NCBI GenBank assembly: GCA_049720225.1
Contig: JBNASD010000002.1
Span: 1,622-65,621 of the forward strand
Length of the DNA stretch: 64,000 nucleotides
Direction: 5' to 3'
DNA from: Microgenomates group bacterium
GTDB lineage: Bacteria; Patescibacteriota; Microgenomatia; PFEM01; JBNASD01
Positions 16,489 to 40,359 of the stretch are shown here, piece by piece. How positions within the stretch are numbered: position 1 is the stretch's first letter; the number at the start of each line of letters is the position of its first letter. Made by a program: the position numbers and the translations under genes. The notes beneath the pieces were generated by a model, which saw nothing but the letters and a program-made list of their open reading frames with translations, was not told where the DNA came from and did not search any database.

Positions 16489-17904
<1,416 letters not shown>

Positions 17905-17915
<11 letters not shown>

Positions 17916-25231: not shown

Positions 25232-27963
25232 TGTGGTCTTAAAAATCCGTCAAAATAAACCGGGTTGATTTTAGTTATTTTAATTAATCCGTTTTGATCA
25301 CCAAAAGCCTGCGCCAACCAAATTAAATTATCTTCTTTATTAACAATGATTCCAATATGGCCATATTCTCCCCCCCTTATTACCGCTAAATCTCCAATTG
25401 TCGCTTGTTTGGGATCATTAATTATTATATAACCAGAAGGAAGATTATCAAGATAATCTTTAGCATGTCTTCCACCGCCAGGATCCCTTCCTAAGGCAGC
25501 CATTATCCCTCTTACAAAACCTACACACTGAAGACCCGGTCCGACATTAAAAACAGAATAATGAAATTGCTCAATAATGATTGTTTTAACTTCCTCAGAA
25601 AGATCACTAGCTCGAATACAATTTTCTGTGTCTTCCCATGTGGAAGAATTTACATAATCAATTCCGCATTGATTAAGAATCCAGATAACACTTTCCGCTA
25701 AATGCCCAGCAACACTTGGATCACGAGGAGAAACTGCCGTACCAATATAAGATGGGGTAGTTCCTTTTCCTTCTTCTAAAAAAGCTCCTCCAACGGTAAT
25801 AATGGTTAAAAGAGAAACGCCAGTAATTGCTCCGATACTTCCTGTTGTGGCAATTACCGGTAAGAAAGAGGGAATAGAAATCGAAGATAAAGAAGAAAGA
25901 AATCCGCTAATAGTATTTCCTATTCCCATTAAAAAAGATCCCAATTTTCCTGCCAGAAAACCTAAAAAAGGAGTTCCTTTGCTTAAAATTCCCAATAATA
26001 AAGAAAGAATACCCGCAGTAATTAAAGTTGGCCCTAAGAATGTTCCTAAAGGAAGAAAAAATCCCAATAAAATTAAAGAGGAACCAAAAATAATTCCAAT
26101 CTCAGGAGATTCTTTTATTTTTTTAAAGAACTTTTTAAAAAGAGACGGAAGAGAAGTTAAAATAAAAGTCACTATTCCCCCAAGTGGGGTAGAAAAAAAA
26201 CTAACAATTGTCGAAAGACCGACTTTAATTCCTAATTTTTTAACCCCCCAACTTCCTATTTTGGTTAAAATTTTTATTGCCCCCTGACCTAATAATTTTC
26301 CTATTTTAGTGTTTTTAAAAAACTTCCAAAAAGCCCTTTTTATTTGATAAAAACTTTTTATTTTTCCAAAAGTTAAAATTTTAATTAAAGGATTTTCGGG
26401 AATTTTAATTTTTTGGGTGACGAATTTAATTAAAAAAGACGGTTTTAAGAAAGAAGGAGAATAAAACCTACTAAAAATCTTAAGATAAAAAGGCGATTCT
26501 TGGAAAATAGCTTTTTGGATATTCTTCCAAAACAAAAGCCGCGAACTTTGGGGGTAAATATTTTCAAGGGAAACAACTATTTCTTCTACTATTTTGGGAG
26601 TAAATCCCTTAGCTAAATAAACTAACCCCAAATGTTGTTCTTGATATTCTTGGGGAGCTAAACTAATTAAACCCTGCAGTGGTTTTACTACTAAAGAAAG
26701 AAGAAAGCGTTGAGGGGTAGGTTTAAATTTTAAGAAAAAGAAAGAGACTTTTTCTAAACCTTCTTTGGTGCTCCATGAAGTTACTTTTTGGATGATTCTT
26801 TTTGCAGAAGAAATAAGTCCTTCTGGAGGAACGAAAGGTAAAAGCTCTTCTTCTAAAAAATTTCCTAATTTTTCTGGACCTATAAACTGAGAAAATTTTG
26901 AATGAAAATCAAAAATCCGATTAGTAATTTTTTGAACAAGGATTTTAATTTCTTCAGGAGGTTTTTTTAAGGATAGTTCTTTAATTTCAGAAAAAACAGC
27001 TTCTCTCCACCTTTCTAAGTCTTCCTCAATTAAAATTAAAGCAGGCTCTATTTGTTGAAGAATTTCTTGAGCTACTTCCGGAATTTTTGGGTGAGATAAA
27101 GAAATAGAATCTAAAATTTCTACTAATTTTTGGGAACTTTTTTGGGGAGAACGGGTGGAAATTTCTCCGGTTTTAATTTTTTCGATAATAGCAGAAACTA
27201 TTTTTTGATTAATTTGAGTAATTTCTTCTTGGGATAGGTCATATTTTTTTAAAGATAAATCAACGCCTTGAGATAGATAAGAAAAAAGAGAAGAGGAAAT
27301 TAAAGAGGAGACTGTTATTGGTCGAGAAACAACGGCAACCTTTGCGGCAAGTGGATAGGTAGCGGTAGTGATTTCATCAACAACTTCCTGAGGAGAAAAG
27401 GAAGGAAGGAGTGATTTTAAAACAGGAATAATTATTTCTTCTTTATACCTTTCTAGAGGAGGTTCTCTCTTAAAAAAAGAAGAACTTATTGTTGAGGTAA
27501 TTTTTTCTATACATTCTCTAGCAATTTTTAAAGAAAATATCCTGGCTGTTAACGGGTTAAGTCTTCTTTTTTCAAGAATTTCTTTAATTCTTTGTCGATA
27601 TTCTTGAAAAGAAGAATCAAATCCTAAGACATTTTCTTGGTTTTCTAGATATTCTTCATAAGCCTTTACAATTTCTTGAAGATTTTCTGGTAAATTTCTT
27701 GGAGAGGAAGTTTCTTGAATTAATATTTCATTAATTTTTAAATAAACCCTTTTTAAAAAATCAGGGTCTTTTGGATCAAGTTCTGGAAAAAAATTGGCTA
27801 AATAAAACAAAAGATCAGAAGGTTTTTCTATTTTTATTTTTAATTTTTCTAAAAAAATTTTTATTTCTGGTTGTTGAGAAACTTCCTCAAAAGGTTCTCC
27901 AAAAAGAAGAGTAAAAACTAAAAACTGAAGAATTTGATAAAACTTTTTTTGCTCTTCAGTCAT
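25228..27963 (-). CDS. large membrane protein with C-terminal CHAP (Cys/His amidohydrolase) peptidoglycan-hydrolase domain (PrgK/VirB1-like role)
   Basis: 911 aa; N-terminal region of about 550 aa with no signal peptide, then a block of TM helices (residues about 560-720), then CHAP motifs ...GLQCVGFVRG... and ...GEYGHIGIIV.... Confidence 0.65.
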   Translation of the reverse strand: MTEEQKKFYQILQFLVFTLLFGEPFEEVSQQPEIKIFLEKLKIKIEKPSDLLFYLANFFPELDPKDPDFLKRVYLKINEILIQETSSPRNLPENLQEIVKAYEEYLENQENVLGFDSSFQEYRQRIKEILEKRRLNPLTARIFSLKIARECIEKITSTISSSFFKREPPLERYKEEIIIPVLKSLLPSFSPQEVVDEITTATYPLAAKVAVVSRPITVSSLISSSLFSYLSQGVDLSLKKYDLSQEEITQINQKIVSAIIEKIKTGEISTRSPQKSSQKLVEILDSISLSHPKIPEVAQEILQQIEPALILIEEDLERWREAVFSEIKELSLKKPPEEIKILVQKITNRIFDFHSKFSQFIGPEKLGNFLEEELLPFVPPEGLISSAKRIIQKVTSWSTKEGLEKVSFFFLKFKPTPQRFLLSLVVKPLQGLISLAPQEYQEQHLGLVYLAKGFTPKIVEEIVVSLENIYPQSSRLLFWKNIQKAIFQESPFYLKIFSRFYSPSFLKPSFLIKFVTQKIKIPENPLIKILTFGKIKSFYQIKRAFWKFFKNTKIGKLLGQGAIKILTKIGSWGVKKLGIKVGLSTIVSFFSTPLGGIVTFILTSLPSLFKKFFKKIKESPEIGIIFGSSLILLGFFLPLGTFLGPTLITAGILSLLLGILSKGTPFLGFLAGKLGSFLMGIGNTISGFLSSLSSISIPSFLPVIATTGSIGAITGVSLLTIITVGGAFLEEGKGTTPSYIGTAVSPRDPSVAGHLAESVIWILNQCGIDYVNSSTWEDTENCIRASDLSEEVKTIIIEQFHYSVFNVGPGLQCVGFVRGIMAALGRDPGGGRHAKDYLDNLPSGYIIINDPKQATIGDLAVIRGGEYGHIGIIVNKEDNLIWLAQAFGDQNGLIKITKINPVYFDGFLRPQ

Positions 27964-28023
27964 AATTTAATGATACAGTAAAATTTTTTACAAAACAAAC
28001 CTAAAAGAAGTTTTATAAATTTT

Positions 28024-29814
28024 TTAGCGGTTTAAGTTAGTAAAGACTTCTTCTGGTTTAGTAGTTATCAAACGGTGTTCCTCTGGGGAGGAAACCGCTT
28101 TGATGGCGACGTGATTAGCACCAGCAAAAAAGAGTCCCTCGCCGACATTAGCGGAAAGAAGAAAATTTTTTTCTCCTTCGGAAAGGTAGAAAACTTCTCC
28201 TACTTTTTCAATTGAAGCGGGGGATTGTTTCATTAAAATTTGAATTGAAGAATTGGTAACAATGGCCTTTCCTAAATCAGTAGCCAAAAAGTCTTCTACA
28301 TCTTGAGTGATAGTGGTTAAACCTAACCAGTATTTTCTCGCTCTTTTGGCAATGGAATATAAAAAGTTTGCCGAATCAGGATATTTCATTAAATGCCAGG
28401 CTTCGTCAACGACTAGAATTCTTTTTTTCATATCTTTTTTAATTTTTGTCCAAATATAATCAAGGATAATAAACATGGCAATTGGCCGAAGACTTTCTTC
28501 TAATTCTTTAATGGAAAAAACCGTAAAATAGTTTTTAATATCGACATTAGAGGGTTGGTCAAAGATTCCCATAAAGCTTCCTTTAATAAATTTTTCTAAA
28601 CGAACCGCCAATGAATTTGCTTCCGGTTCCTCCATTCCGATTAACACTTTATAAAGATCCTCCATTAAAGGCGGTTCTTTCTTTTGGGTTTCTGGTTCAG
28701 GGGTAATTCCTTTCATTTTGTAAGTGGCAACCAACGCTTTATCTAAAAGCGCTTCTTGAGTAGGGGTAAGATCGCCCATAATTATTTTAAACAAAGAATG
28801 CAAAGAAAGAATTTTTAAACCTAACTCATTTTCTCCCTCCTCATAAACTTGAGAAAGATCAAAGGGATTAATTTTTGCTTGAGAATTAAAACCAAAAGAA
28901 ATATATTCTCCACCGACTGCCTGGGCTAAAGTTTTATACTCATCCTCAGGATCAATAACAATAATTTCTGTGCCAAACATCAAAGAGCGGAGAATTTCTA
29001 GTTTTACTAAATAACTTTTTCCCGATCCTGACTTTCCAAAAACAACCGAATTGGCGTTTTCTAAGGTAAATCGATCGAAAACCACCAACGAACCGTTATG
29101 TTGGTTTATTCCGTATAAAATTCCTTCATTGGCAGTTAGTTCTGAAGAGGTAAAAGGAAAAGTAGTTGCCAAAGAAGTGGTATCCATATTGCGAGTAATC
29201 ATTAATTTGTCCAAACAAGTAGGAATAGTGGTTTTAAATCCATCTTCCATTTGTAAAGTGGCGTGTTTGGAAACAATGAGTAAAGATCCAAGCATTGCCA
29301 CTACTTGTTTGGAAATCTGGTTTAACTCTTCTAAAGAGTTGGCCGGAATAGTGATATAAAGACCAAATTGAAAAAATCTTTCTGCTCCTTTTACCAATTC
29401 TTCTTGAAGTTTTCGGGCGTCTTCTAATTTAGCTAAAGTAGCAGGATCAGGAAGTCTTCCTTTTTCGGTGGTGATTTGAATTTCTGCCTCCATTTCTGTA
29501 ATTTTTCTTCTTAATTCATCCAAAACCCCTTTTGCCTCAACCGGATAAATATACATCGCTATTTCTAAACTGTGATCAAAATTAATTAATGGCCCGAGCC
29601 AATTAGGAGAAACAAAACGAGGATAACCGGCAACAAAAAGAGTCCGAAAATATTTGTTACCAATTTTAATATAATCAAAATCAACTTCAATTGCCGAGGG
29701 GGCAATAATGTCTTTTATAGAAACCAAACCTTGATTAAATTTTTCAAGGTCTTGGTTTTCTTGAGAGTGATTTTCTTCAGCCTTCTTTTTAAAAGAGAAA
29801 AAATTAATTTTCAT
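28024..29814 (-). CDS. type IV secretion VirB4/TrsE/PrgJ-family ATPase
   Basis: 596 aa; Walker A VVFGKSGSGKSY, Walker B ILVVDEAWHLM; N-terminal IAPSAIEVDFDYIKIGNKYFRTLFVAGYP is typical of Gram-positive and CPR VirB4 homologues. Confidence 0.85.
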   Translation of the reverse strand: MKINFFSFKKKAEENHSQENQDLEKFNQGLVSIKDIIAPSAIEVDFDYIKIGNKYFRTLFVAGYPRFVSPNWLGPLINFDHSLEIAMYIYPVEAKGVLDELRRKITEMEAEIQITTEKGRLPDPATLAKLEDARKLQEELVKGAERFFQFGLYITIPANSLEELNQISKQVVAMLGSLLIVSKHATLQMEDGFKTTIPTCLDKLMITRNMDTTSLATTFPFTSSELTANEGILYGINQHNGSLVVFDRFTLENANSVVFGKSGSGKSYLVKLEILRSLMFGTEIIVIDPEDEYKTLAQAVGGEYISFGFNSQAKINPFDLSQVYEEGENELGLKILSLHSLFKIIMGDLTPTQEALLDKALVATYKMKGITPEPETQKKEPPLMEDLYKVLIGMEEPEANSLAVRLEKFIKGSFMGIFDQPSNVDIKNYFTVFSIKELEESLRPIAMFIILDYIWTKIKKDMKKRILVVDEAWHLMKYPDSANFLYSIAKRARKYWLGLTTITQDVEDFLATDLGKAIVTNSSIQILMKQSPASIEKVGEVFYLSEGEKNFLLSANVGEGLFFAGANHVAIKAVSSPEEHRLITTKPEEVFTNLNR

Positions 29815-30700
29815 TTTTATTTAAATCCGGATTTTTAACTAGATTATTAATTTTTTCTAAAACCGCATCAATTGGTTCTGGTTTTGTTGTTTTTTGAACT
29901 TGAGAATTTTGTTTTTCTTCCTGAGAAAAAATTACATTATTTTGGGGAGGAGAATTTGGGGTAACAGAAGGAGAGTTATTTTGAGATTCGGTTGGTTTTT
30001 CTAAAGAAAAATTACGCTGAGGAAGAGTGGCTTCAACCATTGGTTGAGTGTAATATTCGGTTTCTTCGACTTGTTGTCCTGGTGATTCAGGATTATAGAT
30101 TTCAAAAAAAAGCTTAATTAGCTCTTTGGTATCTAATTGTTTTCCTTTAATTCCCAATCGCCGCAAGAGACGAATAATGTGGTCTTTTTTAGGTAAAAGA
30201 TTAATTTTTGCTTTTTGAAGAATATAGTCTTTATCAAAGGGAAGCTTTTTGGAGGTAGGTTTTAAGCTTTGAGTGAGAGTTTTTATTCCGCTAATTTCTA
30301 AAGGACTCATCGGAATTACAATATAAAATTTTTTATCCAAGACATTATTTTTTTTAACTGTCTCTTCGACAAATTGAATATATTTTAAAATTTGATTTTT
30401 AATTAAAGGACGCGTTTCTTTTTCGCCGGTTTTTTTTAGGAGATTAATATAATCGCTAACATCTTTTGGTTGAGTACGGATAACAATTTGGATAGGAAAA
30501 GTTAAAGAATTAAGAAGGGCGGCATAGGCGTAAATCATTGCTTCTTGTTCTTTTTCTGATAAAAGATCGTAATTAATAGCGCTGACGCTTAAAATAACAC
30601 ACGCTCCGCCGTTTTTTAAAAGAACAATTCCCTCGCGGATATCTTCAATTTCTAGGTGGTCTTGGGTGCTGGCGCGAATGGCAATTTGGGCAGGATCCAT
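29804..30700 (-). CDS. VirB4 N-terminal-domain-like protein (possibly a split VirB4) with Q/N/S/P-rich tail
   Basis: 298 aa; HLEIEDIREGIVLLKNGGACVILSVSAINYDLLSEKEQEAMIYAYAALLNSL resembles the CagE/TrbE/VirB4 N-terminal domain pattern; 11-nt overlap with the ATPase gene; C-terminal low-complexity tail. Confidence 0.4.
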   Translation of the reverse strand: MDPAQIAIRASTQDHLEIEDIREGIVLLKNGGACVILSVSAINYDLLSEKEQEAMIYAYAALLNSLTFPIQIVIRTQPKDVSDYINLLKKTGEKETRPLIKNQILKYIQFVEETVKKNNVLDKKFYIVIPMSPLEISGIKTLTQSLKPTSKKLPFDKDYILQKAKINLLPKKDHIIRLLRRLGIKGKQLDTKELIKLFFEIYNPESPGQQVEETEYYTQPMVEATLPQRNFSLEKPTESQNNSPSVTPNSPPQNNVIFSQEEKQNSQVQKTTKPEPIDAVLEKINNLVKNPDLNKNEN

Positions 30701-30701
30701 T

Positions 30702-31796
30702 TTAATTTACTTTTTTTCCTCTAATTTCCAAGGGAGGAACAATTTCTCCCTTTAATTCTATCTTGATTATATCAAACTCATATCCCTCTTTTTCGATTTG
30801 AATTTCATATATGCCATCAGGAAGGGGGGTAACAATTCTAAATTGGCCTAATTTATTAGTTTTTAAGGCTCTTACCGGCATGCCGTTTTTATCTTTTATT
30901 TCAATAAGCGCTCCTTCAATTAATTCGTCGTTTTGATCAAGCACCATCCCGGCAATAATATTAGGATAGGAAGGAGGGGTGGGAATAGGTAATTCTTTGT
31001 TTGTTTTTGGGCTAATTGGTGGTTTTTTTGGTAGTTGAGAAAGTTTGTGATAATAAGAAATTACCGTTTCGATAGGCGGTTTTCCTGGATAGCCATAATA
31101 GGAATAGAAATTTTCGCCAATTCCTCCTGGAGCTACCTCTTCAAGGTCTTTTTCTTTAAGATCGACAAATTTTGGTGATGATTTTTCCTCTTTTGGTTTT
31201 TCAAGGGTAGGCTTTTTAATTGATTGAAAAGAAGGTGGTTGTTCCTTTTTGGTCGGGGTAGAGATAGACGAATAAGATGGTTGTCTTTTTTCAAAAACAT
31301 GATTAATCTTTAAAGAAGAAACCTGGGAGAAAAGAGAAAGAATATTTTCAAGAACTTTTTTTTCTTCATTTTCTTCTTTGGGAAAAGTTTTTGTTTCCAA
31401 ACGATGAAGATATTGCGATAAAGAATTTCGATTAGGAGGTAAGTGGTGATTTTTTTCCTGAGGAAAAGATTTTATTTGGTATCGGAAAATTTCCGGAGTT
31501 TCCGGAGTTTTTTTCCATGTGTATAATGTAGGAGAAAAAACTGACTTAAAAAAAGCAAAAATCCAATTAGGAAGAGGTCTTTCTTCAATTGGTAAAAAAG
31601 CAGAAGCAAAACCAAAAAAAACCGCCCCCGCTGCTAAAAGTCCTTTAAAAAAAGGAAAAATAGGCAAACTCCAAAAGAAAAGGCCAGTTAAAGCTCCTCC
31701 AACTAACCACCCAAATTGTTTTAAAGTCATATCGCCAATAAGGCGAAATTCATAAGAAGAAATCTGTTGGGGTACTGGATGTTGTTGGATGGGCAT
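30702..31796 (-). CDS. PrgI/VirB3-like membrane protein fused to a C-terminal carboxypeptidase-regulatory-like beta-sandwich domain
   Basis: 364 aa; N-terminal SYEFRLIGDMTLKQFGWLVGGALTGLFF plus a second helix resembles the PrgI family found upstream of VirB4 in Gram-positive systems; C-terminus GMVLDQNDELIEGALIEIKDKNG...DGIYEIQIEKEGYEF. Confidence 0.45.
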   Translation of the reverse strand: MPIQQHPVPQQISSYEFRLIGDMTLKQFGWLVGGALTGLFFWSLPIFPFFKGLLAAGAVFFGFASAFLPIEERPLPNWIFAFFKSVFSPTLYTWKKTPETPEIFRYQIKSFPQEKNHHLPPNRNSLSQYLHRLETKTFPKEENEEKKVLENILSLFSQVSSLKINHVFEKRQPSYSSISTPTKKEQPPSFQSIKKPTLEKPKEEKSSPKFVDLKEKDLEEVAPGGIGENFYSYYGYPGKPPIETVISYYHKLSQLPKKPPISPKTNKELPIPTPPSYPNIIAGMVLDQNDELIEGALIEIKDKNGMPVRALKTNKLGQFRIVTPLPDGIYEIQIEKEGYEFDIIKIELKGEIVPPLEIRGKKVN

Positions 31797-31902
31797 ATTT
31801 TATTATTTTAAACTGATAACTATTCTTATTCAAGCCAATCAAAACATATCATTTAGAGTATAATTATAGACTGTAACAAGTGTAATAATAATCATAGAAT
31901 TT

Positions 31903-33777
31903 TTGAATTTTTTGATAGAAAATGGTAAAATTTTAATCGAAATGACAGAGGGAAACCAAGAAAAAAAACCGTCTCCTTTTGATTCTTCTCCAGAAGGGAT
32001 ATTGGCAAGATTTGAAGAAAGAAAAAGATGGAGAGAAAGTGAAAAAGGAAAAGAAGTAAGAAGAAGAGCAAAAGCCGAAGGGATTATTAAGAATGAGATT
32101 GGAGGAAAAAGTAATTTGCTGGAATCAGTAGAAGAAAAACCACCAACTCAAGAATTAGAACGTCTAATAAATGACTTAGCAAATTCAATTTTTCAACTAG
32201 AACGGAGATTAGCTGCAGGACATCAGATAGATAATGAAATGTTGCAGCTTCAAAAAGAACAGTTAGAAATGTGGGTTGGAGGAGGTTATGATGCTTTTGT
32301 AAGTGCTGAGGATGCGCAAGTAGCAATAGATCCGAGATTATTTGAAACTCAACCTCCTGCTTGGTACAGGAGGTTGGATGATAGATGGCAAGAAATAATT
32401 CGGGCAAGAATAGCAATTTTAATGGGTTGTTATCCAAAGCGAGCCAGAGGACATTTAGATTTAGGAATTATGGTTGAAAATGCTGATGTGAGGATAGAGA
32501 GAGACGCTTTAGATTTTATGTGGCGAGAAATGCCTGGCTTTCGGATTGCTTTAGCAACGATGATTAATGATCTTTTTGAAATTCGAGAAGAAATACCTCC
32601 TGGCTTATCTAAAGAAAAAAACAACGCCGTTTTTTTAATGGTTTTGAAGGAGGAAGCAAGAAAAGAGGGGGGAATTTTGGATAGATTCGCTGATTATAAA
32701 AAAGAATTAATATCAAGGTTAAAACAATATTTTGAGAAAAATCCAGATTTACTAATAAAAAAAGGCGAAGGAATACCACAGTTTTCTCCAGAAAACGCTG
32801 CAAGGGGAGCAGTAGCTGTTGCTTGGAACCTGCTGTTTTTAGGAAATGCTGTTGATTCTGGAGATCAGGGGGATTTAGGTTATTTGGATAGGGTGCCTCC
32901 TGAAGTAAGTGGGGAAGAATTGAAAATTAACCCTGCAAAAGGAAGAAAAGTTACCAACCCCATTGTTTATGCTGAGCAAGCAAGAGCAATGATGTTGCCT
33001 TTTGATAAAGCATGGAGTAAGTTTTATCGAGAGATGGAGAAAGTGGGAACGGAAGAAACATGGTTAGGAAGATTAGGAGACTATGTTGCAGAAAGAATGC
33101 GGCATGATCCAGAATTTAGAAGAAAATTTTTTAGAAGAGAAATAAGAATTATTCCCCAAAGACTTTTTGCTTCTTGGTTTGATTTGATTACATTTAAAGA
33201 TAAAGACGAGGCTTCTTTAGGAAGAAAATTAGTGGAAGCTCCAAAAAAAAATATAGATGAAGGCCTTTGTGATTTTTCTAATCCAGAAGAATTGGATTTT
33301 TCAAAAATATCTTCTTCAGAATTATGGGGGGGGTATGCTGATATTTGGGATTCTGCCAGAAAAATTTACGAAATGATTGGAGGCAAAAATCCTTTAAAAA
33401 TGGAGAATGTTTTTGAATGGAGACAAATTTTAGCAACTGCACTTTCAAAATTAAGAAATACCCCTTTAGCTCCGTACTATAAAGATCCCGAAATTTTAGT
33501 AAGTTGTTTGGCAGGAGCAGTTGGTTTAGTTGATTTTTCAAGCAAATATATTTTATTTCTTCCTGAAAGAATTTATGATACTTTGATAACTCTAGCTTTA
33601 GATGATGATAGATTATTTACAGGAATGCCAAAGGGAGCTAGAAAATACGTTTTTGAAAAACTAAATGCTTTTGATCATTATTCACTTATTGATTTTTTGA
33701 GAAGTGTTTTTCCTTTTAGGCGAGGTTTACTTCGAGCTAAACGGGCTCAAAAAGCAGCTCAGCTCCGAGCAGAATAG
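31903..33777 (+). CDS. hypothetical cytoplasmic protein (no recognisable domain), opposite strand inside the secretion-like cluster
   Basis: 624-aa uninterrupted ORF. It is rich in R/E/D/W and poor in K/I/N compared with neighbouring genes. Four 100-nt samples, counted by hand, gave about 39-44% GC in this gene, 40% in a pilin gene and 33% in dnaN. Confidence 0.5.
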   Translation: MNFLIENGKILIEMTEGNQEKKPSPFDSSPEGILARFEERKRWRESEKGKEVRRRAKAEGIIKNEIGGKSNLLESVEEKPPTQELERLINDLANSIFQLERRLAAGHQIDNEMLQLQKEQLEMWVGGGYDAFVSAEDAQVAIDPRLFETQPPAWYRRLDDRWQEIIRARIAILMGCYPKRARGHLDLGIMVENADVRIERDALDFMWREMPGFRIALATMINDLFEIREEIPPGLSKEKNNAVFLMVLKEEARKEGGILDRFADYKKELISRLKQYFEKNPDLLIKKGEGIPQFSPENAARGAVAVAWNLLFLGNAVDSGDQGDLGYLDRVPPEVSGEELKINPAKGRKVTNPIVYAEQARAMMLPFDKAWSKFYREMEKVGTEETWLGRLGDYVAERMRHDPEFRRKFFRREIRIIPQRLFASWFDLITFKDKDEASLGRKLVEAPKKNIDEGLCDFSNPEELDFSKISSSELWGGYADIWDSARKIYEMIGGKNPLKMENVFEWRQILATALSKLRNTPLAPYYKDPEILVSCLAGAVGLVDFSSKYILFLPERIYDTLITLALDDDRLFTGMPKGARKYVFEKLNAFDHYSLIDFLRSVFPFRRGLLRAKRAQKAAQLRAE

Positions 33778-35280
33778 TTATTTAATAATTCCCAGCGTTC
33801 TTAATGTATTAGCTATTGCATTTCCGATAGCTACTGGTCGAGGAGCAGTTCCGGGAGGATAGGCTTGATATCTTTCTGATATTTGTTGTCCTGTATATTG
33901 AAGTCCGAACCTGCCTGATAACTTAATTGGTCCTAGTGCTTCTCCAATTGCCGTTCCGTATGGGAAAGGTTTAACTTGGAAAGCGTCTCTAATCATATCG
34001 GGAATCTTTGGAAGTAATAAGATTAAGCCTAATCCTAAAATTGCTACCGTTACTCTTCCGTAAAGCCCAATTAAAGGGGGCACCCATATTTGTCCAGCGT
34101 TTATAATAAGAGCGTTGCAAATTAAAAGAAACAAGGCTACTCCTGGAAAAACTGCTAAATTGGCCACTAAGTTTCTAAGCCAATTTTCAAATCCTTTTTG
34201 TCCTGGTAATATTCCCAAAGCAATTTGAAAAGGAGAAAAAATTATTAAAAAAAGAATTGTAACATAAGATTTTATTAAAGAAAGAAGAGTTTTAAAGAAG
34301 GAAATGATTATTATGATTAAAAAAATAATAAGAAAAAACAACGCTCCTGCTAAAGCACCTACACCAGCACCTCCCCCACCAGCCACTATTCCTCCTATAA
34401 TACCTCCTACCGCAGTTGAAGCAACTCCAAGAATTAAAAGAGGGACTAAAAAATTTCCAAATGTACTGGTGAAAGAATTAAATAATCCGCCGGCCCCCCC
34501 TAAAAAAGAATTTTGATAAAATGCTATTCGGTCAGTAGGAAGGAGATTATTAGAAGAAAACACATTGATAATAAAATAAATAAACCAATAAAGAAGGTCA
34601 ATCAAGAAACCAGCAATAGCGTAAGAGAAAGTTACTAAAATTAAGCCAATAACTATTTTTGGGATAGCATTTTGAATAGAAATTACTGTTTGAGGATTGA
34701 TTTTTGCTCGAAACATAATCGCAAAACCAAAAAGGATAAAAACGATAGTAAAAAATAAATAAGAAATATTACGAAAGGCTTTCCACAGTTTTAAAATTGG
34801 TATTAAACCTTGATAACCGCTTCCTTGTTGAGCAAAAACCGGTTTTGCTATTCCTAATTTTTTTCCTAAGTCAGCAAAATAATCAATTGAAGAAGCAGGT
34901 TTTACAATGTAGGTTGCCGCTATTAAATTACTTATAACTCCTAGCACTCCGCCAGGAGAATAGTTATTATAATTAAAACCTCCTCCTCCGCCTCCGCTTG
35001 GTTCATCGCTTAATTTATCTATTTCTTCTAATACTGATTTGGGGATTTCGCCTACCAATATGTTTAAAACCCATCCCATCATTGTTTCCATTACTCCATA
35101 TTCTCCAGCAATCCATTTGCTTAAAGAGATATTGGGGTTTTTTAAAGCTTCATAAAAATTTTTAAGATAACTTCCTATTTTGGGAGGAGAAGTAGGAGTT
35201 TGGGCATTTGCGATTCTAAGGTTGAATAAAAATAAAGATAAAAAAACAAGAACGATAATTAAAAAAAATTTTTTTCTCAT
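33778..35280 (-). CDS. VirB6/TrbL-like polytopic membrane protein
   Basis: 500 aa; signal peptide, multiple TM helices, Gly-rich tracts (GGGGGGF; GGIIGGIVAGGGGAGVGALAGA) typical of TrbL/VirB6 proteins. Confidence 0.6.
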   Translation of the reverse strand: MRKKFFLIIVLVFLSLFLFNLRIANAQTPTSPPKIGSYLKNFYEALKNPNISLSKWIAGEYGVMETMMGWVLNILVGEIPKSVLEEIDKLSDEPSGGGGGGFNYNNYSPGGVLGVISNLIAATYIVKPASSIDYFADLGKKLGIAKPVFAQQGSGYQGLIPILKLWKAFRNISYLFFTIVFILFGFAIMFRAKINPQTVISIQNAIPKIVIGLILVTFSYAIAGFLIDLLYWFIYFIINVFSSNNLLPTDRIAFYQNSFLGGAGGLFNSFTSTFGNFLVPLLILGVASTAVGGIIGGIVAGGGGAGVGALAGALFFLIIFLIIIIISFFKTLLSLIKSYVTILFLIIFSPFQIALGILPGQKGFENWLRNLVANLAVFPGVALFLLICNALIINAGQIWVPPLIGLYGRVTVAILGLGLILLLPKIPDMIRDAFQVKPFPYGTAIGEALGPIKLSGRFGLQYTGQQISERYQAYPPGTAPRPVAIGNAIANTLRTLGIIK

Positions 35281-35331
35281 TGTTATTTCTAATTTAAGAT
35301 ATTTTATTGTCTTTTGTCAACATTTTTAATT

Positions 35332-37872
35332 TTATCGAGTTAAAAGGTCATACCAATATTTTAAATTTCTAGGAAAATTAGGGTTAGTAGCAAAACTACA
35401 AGGGGCGGGTTTTCCTTCTGAATATTGACACATAAATTCTTCAAAACTTTGGTTAGCGTAAGGTCGGGTAAATAAACATTCCAGTTGAGAAGAGAGATTA
35501 TTTTTTTCTCCTCCTAAACAACCGAGATCATAAGCATCAACTCCTGATGCTCCTGATTCTTCAATCCATAAAGCAATTACAAAAGCAGGATTCCAACCAT
35601 TGTTAACCGCTTGGTTATACACAAAGTCCCATTGATTGCTTATCTGAGAATCTGGCCAAGAATTTCTAACCATCTCAATTACGTTTTGTTTATTTTCTTC
35701 TTTAATGGTAATTGAGGAATCTCGAAAGGGTAAAGAGTAGTCGAGAACAGAAGCAGAGGAATTCAAAGAAGAGGAATTATAAGGAAGTAACGCTTTTTGC
35801 ACCCAACCAAAAGATTTTTTAACTCCTGCCTGCCCAAAAATTTCTACCAGAATTGGTTTCTCTTTACCTGGAGAAGCTTCAATATATTGGGTTGAATTTT
35901 GAAGGGCATGGGTAAACTTAAAAGCTTCTTGGGCGTCCTCGCTGGGAACTTTGAAAATAGAAAAAACTTCATTTCGAAGATACTGATCTGATTCCCAAGT
36001 ATAAGGAGTTTGAATTTGGGGAGTAATAATGTAGGTTTTTTCGGTATGAAAGGGTAAAATTTGTTGAAGGGCTTCTTCTAACGTTAAACCCAAATCAATA
36101 AGCGACTGTAAAATTCCAGGAGTAGGATTAGAGATTCGATCTTTTAAAAAACATTCGCCAAGAACACAAATTACCTCTGGAAGTAATTTTTCTCCTTGGG
36201 GAAAATATCCTTCACACATTCGAGGGGTAGGGGTAGGCATTGGTGTTCCTCCGCAATTTATAATTTCTCCGGTAGAACCTATTAAACAGCTTGCGCATCC
36301 AGAAAGAAATGGTCGAGGATCTTCTTTACATTGGTGATTAAGGTTAGTAACATTAACACAGATATTAATACTTTCTCCCGGGTTAGCAACAACAGAAATT
36401 GGTCCCGGAAAGGGAGAATAAGTGCATTCGTAAGGAAAAGAGGTTGCTACTGGACCCCACAAGCTACTATAAACCCCCTTTCCGCCTACCGATACAGAAA
36501 GATTTCCTGAAAGGTCAAATAATCCACAATTTGCTTGGGCGTGGAATATCCAACAGACTGAGTATTTATTGCCTCCTTGACGGGATATTTGAGGAGAGAT
36601 ACTCATAGAATAATTATTAGCTTGAGCAAAAAGAGGGTTATTGTTAGTTATATTTTCTCCAAGAACATTTTTTGAATTATTAATTGCCAAAAGGCTGTTT
36701 TCCATGGAGATTATATTGGTTTTTTTAGGAAGAAGCATTTTTGCTAATTCCTCCCCAGTGTTGGCCATTTCTTTCGTCCATTCCGGAGTTTTAAATTCTA
36801 TTTCTTTTTCTACGCTAAACCAATTGTTTGTTCCTTGTTCACAAACTTCATAAGTAATTTTTCCCAAAGAAGACTTTTTTTGAACCACAGGAAAATAATT
36901 AGGGGGGGTGAGTCTTTTTAAAGTTTTTTGATGAAGATGAGAAGCGATTGTTTGATTTTTAGGAAAATCTAATTGAAGTATTTTTAGTAAAGCTTGAATT
37001 GTTTTTGCCGGTTCTTGGGGAGAACCGAACCAAGCACTGATAGTGGCAATAAAAGATTCTCCTTTGGTAATTGGCGCTGCTTTAAATGGTTCATCCGCTT
37101 GACAAGCGCCATATTTTTGAACTTTTTGAACTTTTAGTTTTTTAAGAATGAGGTTTTTAGCTATTACCGGATCAAGCTTTTGAAACCACTCTCGCCAGCG
37201 AGGATCCATAAAAGAGCCGGTATCTCTTATTGCCACTAATAATTCTCCCATTGCCTCTCCGATTCTCATTCCTTCTCCTAAAGCAGGCAAAAATTCGCTT
37301 CCCTCTGCAACTAACTGCCTATAATAATTTAATAAGTTAGAGTCTACTCGAAGGTTTTGAAGATGAATAGTATAACCATTGGCCACTGAATTTTCTGCGG
37401 TGTAATGAAGAACGATACTAGTAGGAGTGGCATAAAGAATAATTACCTCAAGATTATCTCCCAAGTCATAACCTGAAGCAGGAACTAAAACCGCTTGTCC
37501 GGGGGAGGCGGAAAATCCTACTAAAGTAGCCCAATCATATTGCAAAGGAAGATCAGGGGGACGAGGGATTGGACCGCCCACAGTATTAGTTTCCCAATTC
37601 CAGTCATTAACTTGATAAAGATTACTAATAATAGGTTGAGGAGTATTCTCTAAAAGGGTGCTTAATTGGGGAGCTTTAGGGTCAATTGGGTGTTCAAAAG
37701 GGATATATTGAAGTTGACCGGAGATTTGTTGATATCCTCTTATTTCTAAATTTAAATCAGGATGGCTTTGGGGGCAACTTATGTAATCATAGGGTGGATT
37801 ACAATCGGCCAAAACAGGAGAAGAAAGAAAAAATAACCAAACCAAAAAAAGAAAGAAAAATATTTTTTTCAT
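35332..37872 (-). CDS. large secreted Cys-rich protein, possible C-terminal lysozyme-like (SLT-type) domain
   Basis: 846 aa; signal peptide MKKIFFFLFLVWLFFLSSPVLA; many Cys; C-terminal FVIALWIEESGASG...AYDLGCLG weakly resembles the catalytic E-S and G-L-M-Q region of lytic transglycosylases. Confidence 0.45.
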   Translation of the reverse strand: MKKIFFFLFLVWLFFLSSPVLADCNPPYDYISCPQSHPDLNLEIRGYQQISGQLQYIPFEHPIDPKAPQLSTLLENTPQPIISNLYQVNDWNWETNTVGGPIPRPPDLPLQYDWATLVGFSASPGQAVLVPASGYDLGDNLEVIILYATPTSIVLHYTAENSVANGYTIHLQNLRVDSNLLNYYRQLVAEGSEFLPALGEGMRIGEAMGELLVAIRDTGSFMDPRWREWFQKLDPVIAKNLILKKLKVQKVQKYGACQADEPFKAAPITKGESFIATISAWFGSPQEPAKTIQALLKILQLDFPKNQTIASHLHQKTLKRLTPPNYFPVVQKKSSLGKITYEVCEQGTNNWFSVEKEIEFKTPEWTKEMANTGEELAKMLLPKKTNIISMENSLLAINNSKNVLGENITNNNPLFAQANNYSMSISPQISRQGGNKYSVCWIFHAQANCGLFDLSGNLSVSVGGKGVYSSLWGPVATSFPYECTYSPFPGPISVVANPGESINICVNVTNLNHQCKEDPRPFLSGCASCLIGSTGEIINCGGTPMPTPTPRMCEGYFPQGEKLLPEVICVLGECFLKDRISNPTPGILQSLIDLGLTLEEALQQILPFHTEKTYIITPQIQTPYTWESDQYLRNEVFSIFKVPSEDAQEAFKFTHALQNSTQYIEASPGKEKPILVEIFGQAGVKKSFGWVQKALLPYNSSSLNSSASVLDYSLPFRDSSITIKEENKQNVIEMVRNSWPDSQISNQWDFVYNQAVNNGWNPAFVIALWIEESGASGVDAYDLGCLGGEKNNLSSQLECLFTRPYANQSFEEFMCQYSEGKPAPCSFATNPNFPRNLKYWYDLLTR

Positions 37873-38180
37873 TTGGGAATAGTAAAGACGGTAAGATCAA
37901 TTCCGGTAAATTCTTTAATGAAAAGCAAAATAAGCCAGCTTCCCAAAAGAATAACCATTCCCAATATGGCATAAGTGATCGTTTTTTGGGCAGATTCTTT
38001 AGTTTTTGGGTCGCCTCCAGAAGTAAGATATTTAAAACCACCAATTAAAAGCATAATAAAAAGAGCAATTCCGGCTAAACGAATAGCCAGGTTAAGGACA
38101 GATTGAAAAATACATTCTAAACACCAAATTTGCGCTATTTGATCGGGTGCGCACTTTTGCCAACACTCTTGAATTGTCAT
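37869..38180 (-). CDS. T4SS pilin-like protein (VirB2/TrbC-like two-helix protein), paralogue 1
   Basis: 103 aa; motif YLTSGGDPKTKESAQKTITYAILGMVILLGSWLI between two hydrophobic helices. Confidence 0.6.
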   Translation of the reverse strand: MTIQECWQKCAPDQIAQIWCLECIFQSVLNLAIRLAGIALFIMLLIGGFKYLTSGGDPKTKESAQKTITYAILGMVILLGSWLILLFIKEFTGIDLTVFTIPK

Positions 38181-38251
38181 ATTTTTAATTTAAATCAAAA
38201 CCCCCCTTCCGTCAAGGAGGAAGAGGGGAAAATAATTAATTTTTTAAAAAA

Positions 38252-38671
38252 TTAAAGGGTAGGAATAGTTAATGTTAATATACTGACGTTAAAGAATACT
38301 TCGATCAATCTAATAATTGCCCAAGCGGCAAAAACAATTACCAAACCAATTAAAGCGGCAGTAATTGTTCCTTGAGCTTTAGCAGTTGCTTCTTTATCTC
38401 CTCCTGAGGTAATCCATTTTATTCCTCCTAAAACTAAAAAAGCAAAAGCAACCAATGCCGCGATGATAAGAATTAGTCTTATTAAAGCAGAAACCAAATC
38501 AGGAATAGTAAATTTAGCTAAATTTTCAAATCCTGCTCCTGGTTCTAGTTTAATGGTTTGGTCAGCGGCTAAAACGATAGATGTTAAAAAATTCATCCTT
38601 TTCACCTCCCTTCTTAATTTTATATTATAAAAAAGTTTAGGAATTTTTTTCAAGTTTAATCTCCTGGACAA
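38252..38671 (-). CDS. T4SS pilin-like protein, paralogue 2
   Basis: 139 aa; WITSGGDKEATAKAQGTITAALIGLVIVFAAWAI. Confidence 0.6.
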   Translation of the reverse strand: MSRRLNLKKIPKLFYNIKLRREVKRMNFLTSIVLAADQTIKLEPGAGFENLAKFTIPDLVSALIRLILIIAALVAFAFLVLGGIKWITSGGDKEATAKAQGTITAALIGLVIVFAAWAIIRLIEVFFNVSILTLTIPTL

Positions 38672-39258
38672 CTGAGATTTCTTCCGCTTACTCTTCCTTT
38701 TGGATCAGGGGTTTTGCTTCCTCCCAAACAAACATATTGGTGGCTGTCGGCATCGCACCACGGATTTTCATAGGCCCATTTTCCCCCGCGATGGTCACAA
38801 ATACAACGGCAGGATTTATAACAATCTCCTTGGTTATAACCTGCAGGACAGCTATATTCTTGACAAATTTGACTTCGACATTGGTCTAAAGAAGGGAGAG
38901 AAACTTTTCCTCCCGAAGGAGGAGATTGCGAGGGTGGAGGAGTGGTTGGCCAAGGAGAAAAAAATCCTCTAACAAATCTTAAAATTGCCCACGCGGAAAA
39001 AGTAATAATTAGACCAATTAAAGCGGCGGTAATGGTACTTTTAGCTTTTGCGACTGCCTCTTTATCTCCGCCTGAGGTAATCCAGCGAATTCCTCCTATA
39101 AGAAGAAGCAAGATAAAAGCAATCAGGGCAATGGTTAAGGCAAGATTTATTAAATTAGAAACCACTAACTGAATATCTAAATTTATCCAACTTTTAATTG
39201 TTGGTGATGCTTCTAAATATTGCCGAATATCGCTAATCACTACTAAGGTGTTGGCCAT
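38656..39258 (-). CDS. T4SS pilin-like protein with C-terminal Pro-rich linker and Cys-rich domain, paralogue 3
   Basis: 200 aa; WITSGGDKEAVAKAKSTITAALIGLIITFSAWAI followed by TTPPPSQSPPSGG and about 12 Cys. Confidence 0.6.
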   Translation of the reverse strand: MANTLVVISDIRQYLEASPTIKSWINLDIQLVVSNLINLALTIALIAFILLLLIGGIRWITSGGDKEAVAKAKSTITAALIGLIITFSAWAILRFVRGFFSPWPTTPPPSQSPPSGGKVSLPSLDQCRSQICQEYSCPAGYNQGDCYKSCRCICDHRGGKWAYENPWCDADSHQYVCLGGSKTPDPKGRVSGRNLSCPGD

Positions 39259-39668
39259 TCGATTTTTAAAATTTGTAAGAAATCAAAACCCAAGGCTGGC
39301 GCTAAGAAATTTATGATTGCAAAAACCGACATAAAAATCAAAAAACCAATTAGAGCAGAAGTGATTGTTCCTTGGGCCTTGGCCACTTTTTCTTTATCTG
39401 GGCCAGCAGTTAACCAGCGAAAACTTCCCCAAATAAGCATAGCTAAAAGAACAACTCCCACCAATGAGAAAAGAATTTTTAAAGTATTAGCTATTAAAAG
39501 GGCAATGATTTCATGCCCCTCTCCTTTACCTAAATTTGGATTAATAACGGGATTATAAATTCCTTCTGCAGGGAGGAGAGGATTTCCTTCATCGATTCTT
39601 GCTAAAAAATATTTATTGTTAATTGTCGATTTCATTTTATTTTTGGACCTAGCAATGGTATTAACCAT
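39243..39668 (-). CDS. T4SS pilin-like protein, paralogue 4
   Basis: 141 aa; WLTAGPDKEKVAKAQGTITSALIGFLIFMSVFAI. Confidence 0.6.
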   Translation of the reverse strand: MVNTIARSKNKMKSTINNKYFLARIDEGNPLLPAEGIYNPVINPNLGKGEGHEIIALLIANTLKILFSLVGVVLLAMLIWGSFRWLTAGPDKEKVAKAQGTITSALIGFLIFMSVFAIINFLAPALGFDFLQILKIEWPTP

Positions 39669-40030
39669 TGAACCTCTAGAAATTCAAATCCTAATAAAGA
39701 ACTTAACAAAGACATTACGGCATAAGCGAACACAATAATTAATAAGCCAATTAATGCTGAGGTAATTTTTTTGGTAGCATTGGCAGTTTTTTGTTGGTCT
39801 CCTGCGGCAGTCATAAAACTGTAAGCACCAATAATAAATTGAAAAATAAACCAAATACCGGCAATAATAGTCATTACTCCAATAATTCGGGAAATAATGT
39901 CGGTAAAAACCCTAGCCGAAATGATAATGCTTTTTTCTTCGGCTAAAAAAGACCAAGGACCCAAACCTGGTGTATTTTTTCCACCGATTGGGCCTAAATC
40001 ATATTCTTTTGCTAAAAGATTAGAGACCAT
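39632..40030 (-). CDS. T4SS pilin-like protein, paralogue 5
   Basis: 132 aa; FMTAAGDQQKTANATKKITSALIGLLIIVFAYAV. Confidence 0.55.
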   Translation of the reverse strand: MVSNLLAKEYDLGPIGGKNTPGLGPWSFLAEEKSIIISARVFTDIISRIIGVMTIIAGIWFIFQFIIGAYSFMTAAGDQQKTANATKKITSALIGLLIIVFAYAVMSLLSSLLGFEFLEVQWLIPLLGPKIK

Positions 40031-40358
40031 AGATCTTTGGTTTTAAAATGGCGGTTGGATCGCCAAACAATAAATAACCAAAAATAGCCGCTAAAACAAA
40101 TGAGCCTAAAATAAAAAGCAATCCCAACATTGATTGCCAAATTTTTTGCCAGGCGGCCTCCATTTTTTTAGGATCATCGCCTGCCCCTAAAAACCCATAA
40201 CCGGCCAAAATTAAATTAATAAATGCCCAGATTCCCCCGATAACAATTAAAAGCCTAACGAGATTGGTAAAAAAGGGAATTAATCCTGACTGAAAGCCTC
40301 CGTACTTATCATCTGTAAACGGTGGAGGAGGATTAATATTACCAATAATATCTAGCAT
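40020..40358 (-). CDS. T4SS pilin-like protein, paralogue 6 (divergent)
   Basis: 112 aa; FLGAGDDPKKMEAAWQKIWQSMLGLLFILGSFVL. Confidence 0.5.
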   Translation of the reverse strand: MLDIIGNINPPPPFTDDKYGGFQSGLIPFFTNLVRLLIVIGGIWAFINLILAGYGFLGAGDDPKKMEAAWQKIWQSMLGLLFILGSFVLAAIFGYLLFGDPTAILKPKIYGL

Positions 40359-40359
40359 T

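Follow-up and report, generated by a model that had tools for sequence, protein, structure and literature searches.

A conserved opposite-strand gene of a Patescibacteria type IV secretion locus is exchanged together with the tail of its VirB6-like neighbour

Introduction

A 64,000-nucleotide stretch from a Microgenomates group bacterium (GenBank assembly GCA_049720225.1, contig JBNASD010000002.1, positions 1,622 to 65,621; hereafter the window, meaning the whole stretch) carries a type IV secretion system (T4SS) locus next to dnaA and dnaN, and in the middle of this locus one gene stands on the opposite strand. This gene, which we call the slot gene (31942..33777, + strand), encodes a soluble protein of 611 amino acids (aa) and is, as a sequence-only reading of the window had noted, the sole plus-strand gene between two minus-strand blocks (24761..31796 and 33778..40695). 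The same reading had described it as a compositionally distinct orphan and had proposed either a cargo, effector, immunity or regulatory protein of the system or a horizontally acquired insert. What, then, is a lone opposite-strand gene doing inside a secretion locus?

The machine to which it may belong is itself poorly explained. In the searched sections of PMC11665869 and PMC10633639, the T4SS of Patescibacteria is reported to be essential for epibiotic growth in the one species tested, and its function and substrates are called 'completely unknown'. Here we show that the slot gene is inherited and exchanged as one unit with the final ~55 codons of the convergent VirB6-like gene, and that this unit exists in many deeply divergent types.

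Results

The slot is conserved in related T4SS loci

We defined the slot-protein family by two features, a match to the profile of our alignment A2 and a gene position convergent with, and abutting, a VirB6-like gene. The window protein, which seeds the family, has both. An exhaustive profile search returned 135 representative clusters at E ≤ 1e-3 and 59 at E ≤ 1e-30, and the description as an orphan had to be abandoned. A word-indexed search recovered nine relatives besides the window protein (39-63% identity), all unnamed or labelled 'hypothetical'. A second word-indexed search with the alignment as query returned the same 10 proteins, and a scan of genome contigs found one locus only, identical to the locus designated L001.

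When approached from the protein side, the family gene occupied the same position in all eight independent contexts (the window, L001, L002/L003, L004/L005, L008, L010, L011 and L013/L014), including matches at 23-25% identity and the weakest match of all (E = 3e-4), and in these eight contexts members were found nowhere but in the slot. The shared order is a slot gene tail-to-tail with the gene of a polytopic protein of ~480-560 aa, followed by the gene of a variable secreted protein (268-1170 aa) and a pilin array. From the side of the neighbour, a metagenome search with an alignment of the polytopic protein gave at least 569 relatives. The best 80 were used, and 58 of these were informative in having at least 1.5 kilobases (kb) of downstream sequence. 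All 58 contained a convergent open reading frame (ORF) of 384-1340 aa, located 3-230 nucleotides (nt) past the stop codon of the VirB6-like gene, and a strong hydrophobic segment was absent from 53 of the 58 predicted slot proteins. Thirty-eight could be linked to the family by phmmer, and the other 20 showed no relation to it by hidden Markov model or hhalign and no Pfam domain above threshold.

The surroundings of the slot were also largely retained. Of 31 related loci, 30 had a pilin array on the strand of the VirB6-like gene and upstream of it, and an operon of PrgI, TrsD and VirB4 lay beyond the slot gene in 14 of 18. The flank on the PrgI side varied, with the operon adjacent, split off by inserted genes, or absent from the retrieved flank. 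The opposite-strand slot is a constant of the T4SS architecture of this clade. The idea of a one-off, horizontally acquired insert does not hold, since every one of the 58 informative loci has a large convergent gene at this place; the term 'horizontally exchanged' applies to the slot as a class, and the window copy looks native. The sequence-only reading had itself named a normal composition, together with conserved presence in relatives and a known domain, as grounds for giving up its proposal; the composition proved normal and the gene present in relatives, and no known domain was found.

We found no coupling-protein gene in the window or within 8 kb on either side of the 80 related loci. 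L002 has a tyrosine recombinase (17641-18513) and a coupling-protein-like gene (18711-21041; DUF8128 / TrwB_AAD_bind / TraG-D_C) between its pilin module and PrgI, and L003 likewise. Several relatives have an insertion hotspot between the slot gene and the PrgI operon (L002, 8038-9960; L003, 3004-4926; L011, 6778-8146; L010, 6746-9915), where we found a HEPN/nucleotidyltransferase pair, AbiEii, a gene for a 23S rRNA intervening-sequence protein and citrate-lyase/CoA-ligase-like genes. In addition, the same pilin-array, VirB6-like and slot module occurs in L001/L007 (CAZIOQ010000006.1, GCA_964540975.1), labelled 'uncultured Gammaproteobacteria bacterium', with a slot protein 39% identical to that of the window. 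The label or binning of this metagenome-assembled genome looks doubtful.

The slot gene and the VirB6-like tail are exchanged as a unit

The convergent neighbour in the window (33778..35280, - strand) encodes a polytopic membrane protein of 500 aa with a signal peptide and ~7-8 transmembrane (TM) segments by hydropathy. We call it VirB6-like by topology and position only. No VirB6, TrbL or PrgH profile matched it in Pfam or the PDB, even when an 8-sequence profile was used, and its sole NCBIfam match, to the Mbov_0396 integrative conjugative element transmembrane protein (E = 5.6e-4), lay below the curated cutoff. VirB6 is nearly undetectable by profiles in Microgenomatia, according to the searched sections of PMC12102498. 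Homologues at 30-47% identity occupied the same position in all related loci.

Alignments and DNA breakpoints delimit a hypervariable tail in this protein, which follows the motif KPFPYGxAIGE and comprises residues 443-500 in the window (33781..33954, - strand). The window tail belongs to what we call type A and ends in ...LRTLGIIK. A related ending is found in all eight slot-family loci, as LR[TS]xG[IV]IK in the closer five and in degenerate form in the three most distant, and it persists in loci with slot-protein identities as low as 23-25% and VirB6-like bodies of ~30% identity. This conservation within a type indicates that the tail is under type-specific constraint, which argues against pure hitch-hiking. 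The tail has a net charge of +5 and is probably cytoplasmic; in A. tumefaciens VirB6, the C-terminal tail is cytoplasmic.

Comparison of closely related loci revealed how the two 3' ends change. In three pairs of loci with flanks 89-99% identical, the slot gene and the final ~50 VirB6-like codons had been replaced together. Between L004/L015 and L016, the DNA is 98.6% identical over 7 kb containing the pilins, the secreted protein and the VirB6-like body, and 96% identical on the PrgI side. The ~2 kb without similarity consist of the slot coding sequence (CDS) and the last 54 VirB6-like codons, with one breakpoint just after KPFPYGxAIGE, 54 codons before the stop, and the other ~5 codons after the start of the slot gene. 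The two slot proteins show no BLASTP similarity to each other, although each is matched by the family profile (E = 9e-197 and 1e-18). L065 and L068 have flanks that are 99.4% and 98.4% identical and slot proteins that are 33% identical, with the breakpoint 137 nt before the VirB6-like stop. L059 is a mosaic relative to L080. Its breakpoint lies 150 nt before the stop and the N-terminal 171 aa of its slot protein are kept at 79% identity, while its C-terminal 490 aa and its VirB6-like tail match L037 instead, at 58% and 56%, respectively. The converse was seen between L017 and L019, where slot proteins (82%) and tails (69%) are similar and the VirB6-like bodies are only 43% identical. Furthermore, VirB4 remains 64-84% identical where the slot protein falls to 23% or becomes undetectable.

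The pattern extends across the whole set. We distinguished 43 tail types and 28 slot types among 56 non-redundant loci. All 20 pairs of loci with the same tail type also agreed in slot type, which only 40 of the 1520 pairs with different tail types did. In a partial Mantel test of tail against slot similarity that controlled for body identity, r was 0.19 and none of 2000 permutations was as high. Tails were more alike when slot proteins were alike in every bin of body identity, and in all 11 pairs that combined low body identity with high tail similarity the slot proteins were similar. Nevertheless, the two 3' ends are adjacent, and co-transfer alone is therefore no proof of interaction.

An invertible or shufflon-type cassette was considered and rejected, as no flanking inverted repeats were detected, only short AT-rich chance matches. 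Without such repeats at the cassette, exchange is attributed to homologous recombination in the conserved flanks. Partial swaps were also observed (L061 versus L082 and L059 versus L080), in which the C-terminus of the slot protein moves with the VirB6-like tail and its N-terminal part stays with the backbone or diverges separately. They suggest that the slot protein is made of two modules.

The slot protein is a large soluble protein with a conserved helical core

The slot protein has neither a TM segment nor a signal peptide (maximum 19-aa Kyte-Doolittle score 1.51), as had been stated before, and a single borderline hydrophobic segment occurs in only 4 of 142 family sequences. The earlier impression of a protein without a recognisable motif was also borne out by searches of Pfam, NCBIfam, PHROGs, PADLOC and PDB sequences, none of which gave a domain match. 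Pfam returned nothing for the slot protein itself and no recurrent family among 48 members, at E ≤ 0.01 or at E ≤ 5; NCBIfam, PHROGs and PADLOC searches with the slot protein gave no matches; and the PDB sequence search gave none with either the single sequence or a 72-sequence profile. No relatives of the slot protein were found in plasmid, phage and viral-contig searches. Family members reach total lengths of 1151 aa and carry N-terminal extensions.

With the 72-sequence alignment, AlphaFold2 produced a confident model (predicted local distance difference test, pLDDT, 90.4; predicted template modelling score 0.82), as against a pLDDT of 54 with 10 sequences. The model consists of an N-terminal hairpin with a long helix (residues ~17-112), a compact core (113-611) and a basic terminal helix. 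The N-terminal variable region (residues 1-112; 31942..32277, + strand) is predicted as a helical hairpin, a disordered linker and one long helix. It has low occupancy and conservation in the 72-sequence alignment, and its modelled helices (17-55 and 70-112) have lower pLDDT. The conserved core (residues 113-611; 32278..33774, + strand) is predicted to be mainly alpha-helical with two small beta-hairpins, and its pLDDT is mostly 92-98, lower in loops. Foldseek with this model retrieved nothing from the PDB (best E = 1.6, TM-score ≤ 0.13) or BFVD. On the predicted model, the fold thus appears to have no match to solved or viral structures in these two libraries, which falls short of calling it a new fold.

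Near-invariant residues are spread along the protein: W141, K166, P198, G199, F212, N296, S306, D308, R335, R348, K360, G376, G379, P405, Y465, D467, K503, G528, Y545, R557 and R594. About 30 positions are at least 80% identical among sequences whose overall identity is 20-60%. The last 30 residues (33685..33774, + strand) are basic, with a net charge of +6. Across the family, the mean charge of the last 30 aa is +5.1, compared with -0.66 per 30 aa elsewhere, and it is +3 or more in 87.5% of members; the background in the window proteome is +1.5 +/- 3.4. The basic tail of the slot protein is a trait that is not specific to T4SS substrates.

Several specific identities were examined and rejected. 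A VirD4-type coupling protein is not supported, as there is no Walker A motif, no TM segment and no Pfam coupling-protein domain in 48 members. A conjugative relaxase finds no Pfam or NCBIfam match, no PDB sequence or fold match, and no conserved His or metal-binding triad. In a Rosetta-stone test for a VirB6 fusion, none of the 142 sequences contained a multi-TM VirB6-like domain. An internal duplication of the two protein halves received an hhalign probability of 0.2%.

The composition of the slot gene is native

The window is AT-rich, with a GC content of 33.1%. The GC content of the ORF 31903-33777 is 35.5%, and 13.5% of same-size windows are at least as GC-rich. For the CDS 31942-33777 it is 35.9% (z = +0.85, rank 9 of 45 ORFs). 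At third codon positions the GC content (GC3) is 21.2%, as against a mean of 22.9% in the window; the gene takes rank 23 of 45 in synonymous-codon distance, and AGA, the AT-rich and native choice, accounts for 62% of the Arg codons. Two hand-counted 100-nt samples had suggested otherwise. One, at 39%, was reproduced exactly, and the other, given as 44%, measured 46%; such values are reached by 21% and 7% of all 100-nt windows, respectively, and both samples are ordinary local fluctuations. GC, GC3 and codon usage, calculated over the window, all lie within its normal range, and the claim of a compositionally distinct gene is withdrawn. The nucleotide composition and codon usage of the slot gene are native, with no compositional sign of foreign origin. 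A genomic island was likewise rejected, as the composition is native, the gene is present in relatives and no plasmid, phage or viral-contig relatives were found.

The amino-acid bias noted earlier is real but only modestly unusual. Arg, at 8.7%, is the highest of the 45 window ORFs (z = 2.3), Asp+Glu ranks 5, Ile+Asn 42 and Lys 37, all in the direction that had been described; Trp, also said to be enriched, ranks 13 of 45 and is not. Such a bias is expected of the slot protein as the only large soluble protein, ATPases aside, in a setting of membrane and secreted proteins.

Start, promoter and convergent junction of the slot gene

An uninterrupted plus-strand ORF does span 31903..33777. It had been read as 624 aa from the TTG at 31903, and we corrected the start to the ATG at 31942 (611 aa; stop TAG at 33775-33777) on the basis of homologue N-termini and promoter position. 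All homologues start with M-[TPSA]-E at the position of this ATG. A consensus scan placed a promoter-like site (TTGAAT, 17 nt, TAAAAT with an upstream TG) at 31903..31931 on the + strand, and its extended -10 element, TGGTAAAAT at 31923-31931, falls within the 5' extension of the longer ORF. With only 10 nt between the -10 element and the ATG, the mRNA would be leaderless or have a very short leader. In 10 independent homologous loci, a TGNTAWAAT element precedes the ATG by 6-21 nt. Similar starts occur elsewhere in the window. Of 59 window genes, 7 have an extended -10 promoter (TGNTANAAT) whose end lies 7-16 nt ahead of the ATG, compared with ~0.2 expected by chance (starts at 5773(+), 20473(-), 31942(+), 40755(+), 53724(+), 55126(+) and 60362(-)). 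This suggests that leaderless or very short-leader mRNAs may be widespread in the source organism.

A promoter-like site of the PrgI-TrsD-VirB4 operon, also from the consensus scan, lies at 31805..31833 (- strand) and is divergent from the slot gene; the two promoters are back-to-back, ~70 nt apart. At its other end the slot gene is convergent with the VirB6-like gene, and the stop codons abut with a spacer of 0 nt (TAG/TTA at 33775-33780). Since no spacer separates the stop codons, a terminator-like hairpin and T-run of the pilin/VirB6-like operon (33757-33770, - strand) falls within the final codons of the slot gene. Terminator sites scanned around the junction did not exceed chance expectation (4 against 2.2 +/- 1.7).

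The surrounding T4SS locus

The first minus-strand block (24761-31796) directly follows dnaA (22068-23435) and dnaN (23653-24777). On the - strand it contains the gene of a PrgI/VirB3-like protein with a CarboxypepD_reg domain (30702..31796); a TrsD-like protein related to the VirB4 N-terminal domain (29804..30700; NCBIfam TrsD, E = 9.6e-12, below the curated cutoff); a VirB4-like ATPase (28024..29814; Pfam P-loop_TraG and AAA_10, with a sub-threshold CagE_TrbE_VirB match); a 911-aa protein with a Pfam CHAP domain, a candidate VirB1-like cell-wall hydrolase (25228..27963); and, as last gene of the ATPase operon, a 156-aa protein that is bitopic by hydropathy and kept in L004 and L005 (24761..25231). 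The second block (33778-40695) comprises the VirB6-like gene, the gene of an 846-aa secreted protein with a signal peptide only (35332..37872, - strand) and an array of seven VirB2-like T4SS pilin genes (37869..40695, - strand; Pfam PF18895). Five of the seven pilin genes pass the gathering threshold, and those at 40020-40358 and 40360-40695 are below it. With VirB4, TrsD, PrgI/VirB3, a cell-wall hydrolase and VirB2-like pilins, with dnaA and dnaN adjacent and without a relaxase, the locus has the features of a Patescibacteria MPF_FATA-like T4SS.

The secreted protein is fast-evolving, being 64% identical to its counterpart in L004, 22% identical in L001 and undetectable in L008, L010 and L011; a 268-aa protein stands at its position in L013. 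It could be a tip adhesin.

Cumulative GC skew is lowest at ~21-22 kb, immediately upstream of dnaA (22068), consistent with an oriC at that place. Both T4SS operons, being on the - strand, would therefore be head-on to replication and the slot gene co-directional with it. In the searched sections of PMC10633639, the T4SS genes beside dnaA of S. epibionticum are likewise on the opposite strand. No rRNA genes were found in the window, whose gene content points to Patescibacteria, possibly Microgenomatia. A tmRNA gene (49515-49864, +) begins 8 nt before the end of a 149-aa ORF (49073-49522, +), which is placed like the SmpB gene of L001. Directly upstream of this ORF is a 593-aa ORF without a Pfam match (47290-49071, +); L001 has a similar 647-aa gene followed by SmpB. 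A 464-aa ORF without a Pfam match (58968-60362, -) shows the most deviant synonymous codon usage among long genes (0.114) and has its extended -10 promoter 11 nt upstream of the ATG.

Discussion

A probable cognate pair carried by an exchangeable cassette

We consider it likely that the slot gene encodes a dedicated soluble T4SS protein that forms a type-specific cognate pair with the VirB6-like tail, the two being carried on an exchangeable cassette. The slot protein would be cytoplasmic and made from its own extended -10 promoter, with transcription running against the operon of pilins, secreted protein and VirB6-like protein. Its ~500-aa alpha-helical core would pair type-specifically with the ~55-aa tail, so that the soluble protein would dock on its cognate cytoplasmic tail. 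Recombination between the KPFPYG motif and the 5' end or promoter of the slot gene would swap the cassette among strains, and such swapping may have produced the dozens of ancient types.

For the role of this pair, we rank cargo first, an exclusion-like factor second and an adaptor third. Our first choice is tentative and falls short of an even chance: the slot protein might be the dedicated translocated cargo of the system, recruited by its cognate VirB6-like tail. The tail would bring it to the channel in place of a coupling protein, the basic C-terminus would assist, and diversification would be driven by interaction with the host bacterium. Cargo is favoured because the C-terminal 30 aa are basic in an otherwise slightly acidic protein, because no coupling-protein gene occurs in the window or near the 80 related loci, and because the pattern of diversity is unlike that of a housekeeping machine subunit. 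Of the options raised by the sequence-only reading, cargo, effector or immunity emerges as the best class of explanation, through synteny and co-inheritance with the tail, and a regulatory role ranks low. The odd one out in its cluster, the slot gene is probably a component of the cargo or immunity type. A more general possibility, which we regard as doubtful, is that tail and slot protein form a highly polymorphic recognition pair that would act as a substitute for a coupling protein or as a kin-recognition or exclusion system. Cargo selection without a coupling protein in a monoderm, pilus-bearing T4SS would, if true, be new, and so would cytoplasmic kin recognition or exclusion between ultra-small epibiotic bacteria.

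Several points weigh against a cognate pair that serves cargo delivery. The location of the tail follows only from hydropathy counting and the positive-inside rule. The tail adjoins the 3' end of the slot gene, and its co-transfer could be hitch-hiking. Known T4SS substrates are recognised by VirD4-type coupling proteins and not by VirB6 tails, and no precedent is known for recruitment of cargo via a VirB6 tail. Being fixed in position and single-copy, the gene looks more like one for a machine part or an exclusion factor than one for an effector. Conservation within a type is higher for the slot protein (62%) than for the VirB6-like body (46%) or PrgI (45%), the many near-invariant polar residues could equally fit a cytoplasmic enzyme or a binding site, and the 20 unlinked slot proteins lack the basic C-terminus. 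Finally, the Saccharimonadia T4SS examined by transposon sequencing has no equivalent gene, as far as the searched sections of PMC10633639 describe it.

Alternative explanations

An exclusion or kin-recognition factor is a rather unlikely explanation in our judgement. By analogy with conjugative systems, a slot protein in a recipient or sibling cell would sense the cognate tail of an incoming T4SS and block delivery, and the cassettes would be compatibility groups. Such a role would account for a slot gene that abuts the VirB6-like gene in 58 of 58 loci, for discrete types of ancient origin, each conserved internally yet exchanged from strain to strain, and for a specificity-type co-variation with the VirB6 region, although this co-variation shows co-inheritance only and is subject to the linkage caveat. 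The protein itself fits less well. The exclusion factors known to us are small (~70-170 aa) and are lipoproteins or proteins of the inner membrane, whereas slot proteins have 400-1300 aa, lack a strong hydrophobic segment in 53 of 58 loci and resemble no known exclusion factor in sequence or fold. Moreover, 28 slot types among 56 loci contrast with the handful of groups in known systems, and the many conserved polar residues suggest more than simple binding.

The slot protein could also be a cytoplasmic subunit that is not translocated, acting as an adaptor, gate or assembly platform on the VirB6-like tail, which we judge unlikely. It would then be the trans-encoded counterpart of the helical domains on 'extended' VirB6 proteins, and possibly a substitute for the coupling protein in substrate selection. 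Its universal, single-copy and fixed position, its solubility without a hydrophobic segment, a within-type evolutionary rate similar to that of machine parts and the lack of a coupling-protein gene nearby are all what one would expect of a subunit, and the window VirB6-like protein has only 500 aa and a short tail. S. epibionticum, in the searched sections of PMC10633639, has two large VirB6-like proteins with ARM-like helical C-termini and no slot gene. A subunit would, however, leave dozens of deeply divergent types and the replacement of whole cassettes between strains 97-99% identical without a reason; the protein also has no Walker motif, and no VirB6-like fusion exists among 142 sequences.

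Alternatively, the slot might be a recombination hotspot that holds variable genes, for example for defence or addiction, with no tie to the T4SS and with the VirB6-like tail hitch-hiking. The insertion hotspot found in relatives between the slot gene and the PrgI operon, the 20 of 58 slot proteins that are not recognisably of the family and the fact that adjacency alone can explain co-transfer would agree with this. We nevertheless regard it as very unlikely, since the slot is filled in 58 of 58 loci in constant orientation, two-thirds of its occupants are one superfamily whose members occur only in the slot, neither PADLOC nor PHROGs matches nor plasmid or phage relatives were found, and the tail motif is conserved within type.

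A transcriptional regulator, or an insulator that separates the pilin and ATPase operons through the gene itself or through convergent transcription, is highly improbable. The arrangement is suggestive, with promoters back-to-back with that of PrgI at a distance of ~70 nt, a convergent pilin operon at a 0-nt spacer and the opposite orientation kept in 58 of 58 loci; yet no DNA-binding domain was detected in 48 members, 400-1300 aa would be very large for a regulator, and hypervariability and co-variation with the VirB6 tail would go unexplained. An insulating effect of the orientation may exist as a side property. Lastly, a compositionally foreign, recently acquired orphan insert is barely credible, its local 100-nt GC maxima (46% and 39%) and Arg-rich composition being set against ORF-wide GC, GC3 and codon usage that are normal for the window, 135 representative clusters and a position conserved in every relative examined.

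Comparison with known systems

The slot family and the tail/slot cassette are not described in the searched sections of PMC12102498, PMC10633639 and the 2025 T4SS review PMC12857230, and our literature search found no other paper on either; a soluble protein of ~600 aa as partner of a VirB6 tail, or its fold, is unreported in the literature and libraries searched. A family that is fixed in place yet hypervariable across a large clade, and tied to what is probably the cytoplasmic end of the channel, offers a handle on what the machine recognises or moves. Whether the slot protein proves to be cargo, cargo receptor or self/non-self determinant, each would inform T4SS function. The conserved slot with its co-swapped tail would be a new and testable specificity module of an essential, functionally unexplained secretion system, for which binding between tail and protein is predicted to differ for cognate and non-cognate combinations; the natural swap variants are ready-made specificity controls.

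The locus as a whole resembles the Patescibacteria MPF_FATA-like T4SS, as presented in the searched sections of PMC12102498 and PMC10633639, in having TrsD, PrgI, VirB4 and a VirB2-like pilin array beside dnaA, no relaxase and no Pfam-recognisable VirB6. The same kind of system in S. epibionticum contains 'extended' VirB6-like proteins, SEML1_0011 and SEML1_0013, of 998 and 1088 aa with ARM-like C-termini (searched sections of PMC10633639 and PMC12857230). By analogy, both cases may represent a helical cytoplasmic module tied to the channel protein of a Patescibacteria T4SS; here, by contrast, the module forms a polypeptide of its own, whose gene lies on the opposite strand, and no fusion occurs among 142 members.

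T4SS substrates with positively charged C-terminal signals are well known, and their receptors are VirD4-type coupling proteins. The slot protein is like them in being soluble, predicted to be cytoplasmic, encoded in a T4SS locus and equipped with a conserved basic C-terminus. It differs in that no coupling-protein gene is nearby and in that the proposed receptor would be the VirB6-like tail.

Polymorphic cassettes are a feature of other secretion machines as well, such as the VgrG/PAAR-effector cassettes of type VI secretion systems, CdiA-CT/CdiI and Rhs-CT/immunity. As in those, a variable block between conserved delivery genes is replaced as a unit, near-identical strains carry unrelated alleles, and one mosaic here has exchanged the C-terminal 490 aa of its slot protein but retained the N-terminal 171 aa. 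Unlike those, the variable block here consists of the 3' ends of two convergent genes and not of a toxin tip with its immunity gene, two-thirds of the slot alleles belong to one superfamily with conserved residues, and no toxin or immunity domain was detected.

The entry-exclusion pairs of conjugative elements (TraG-Eex of SXT/R391 and IncA/C, TraG-TraS of F and ConG-YddJ of ICEBs1) provide a further comparison. Their exclusion factors are different from the slot protein, which has 611 aa, is soluble and is unrelated in sequence or fold, and the slot has far more types, a chromosomal locus and no relaxase. TraS and Eex target cytoplasmic determinants of the VirB6 homologue TraG, YddJ targets ConG, and known exclusion genes abut their VirB6 targets and co-vary with them in specificity groups (PMC11493245). 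The slot gene likewise abuts a gene that we take as VirB6-like, and the variable region of that neighbour co-varies with the slot product in discrete types, as the 20 of 20 agreement between tail and slot types illustrates.

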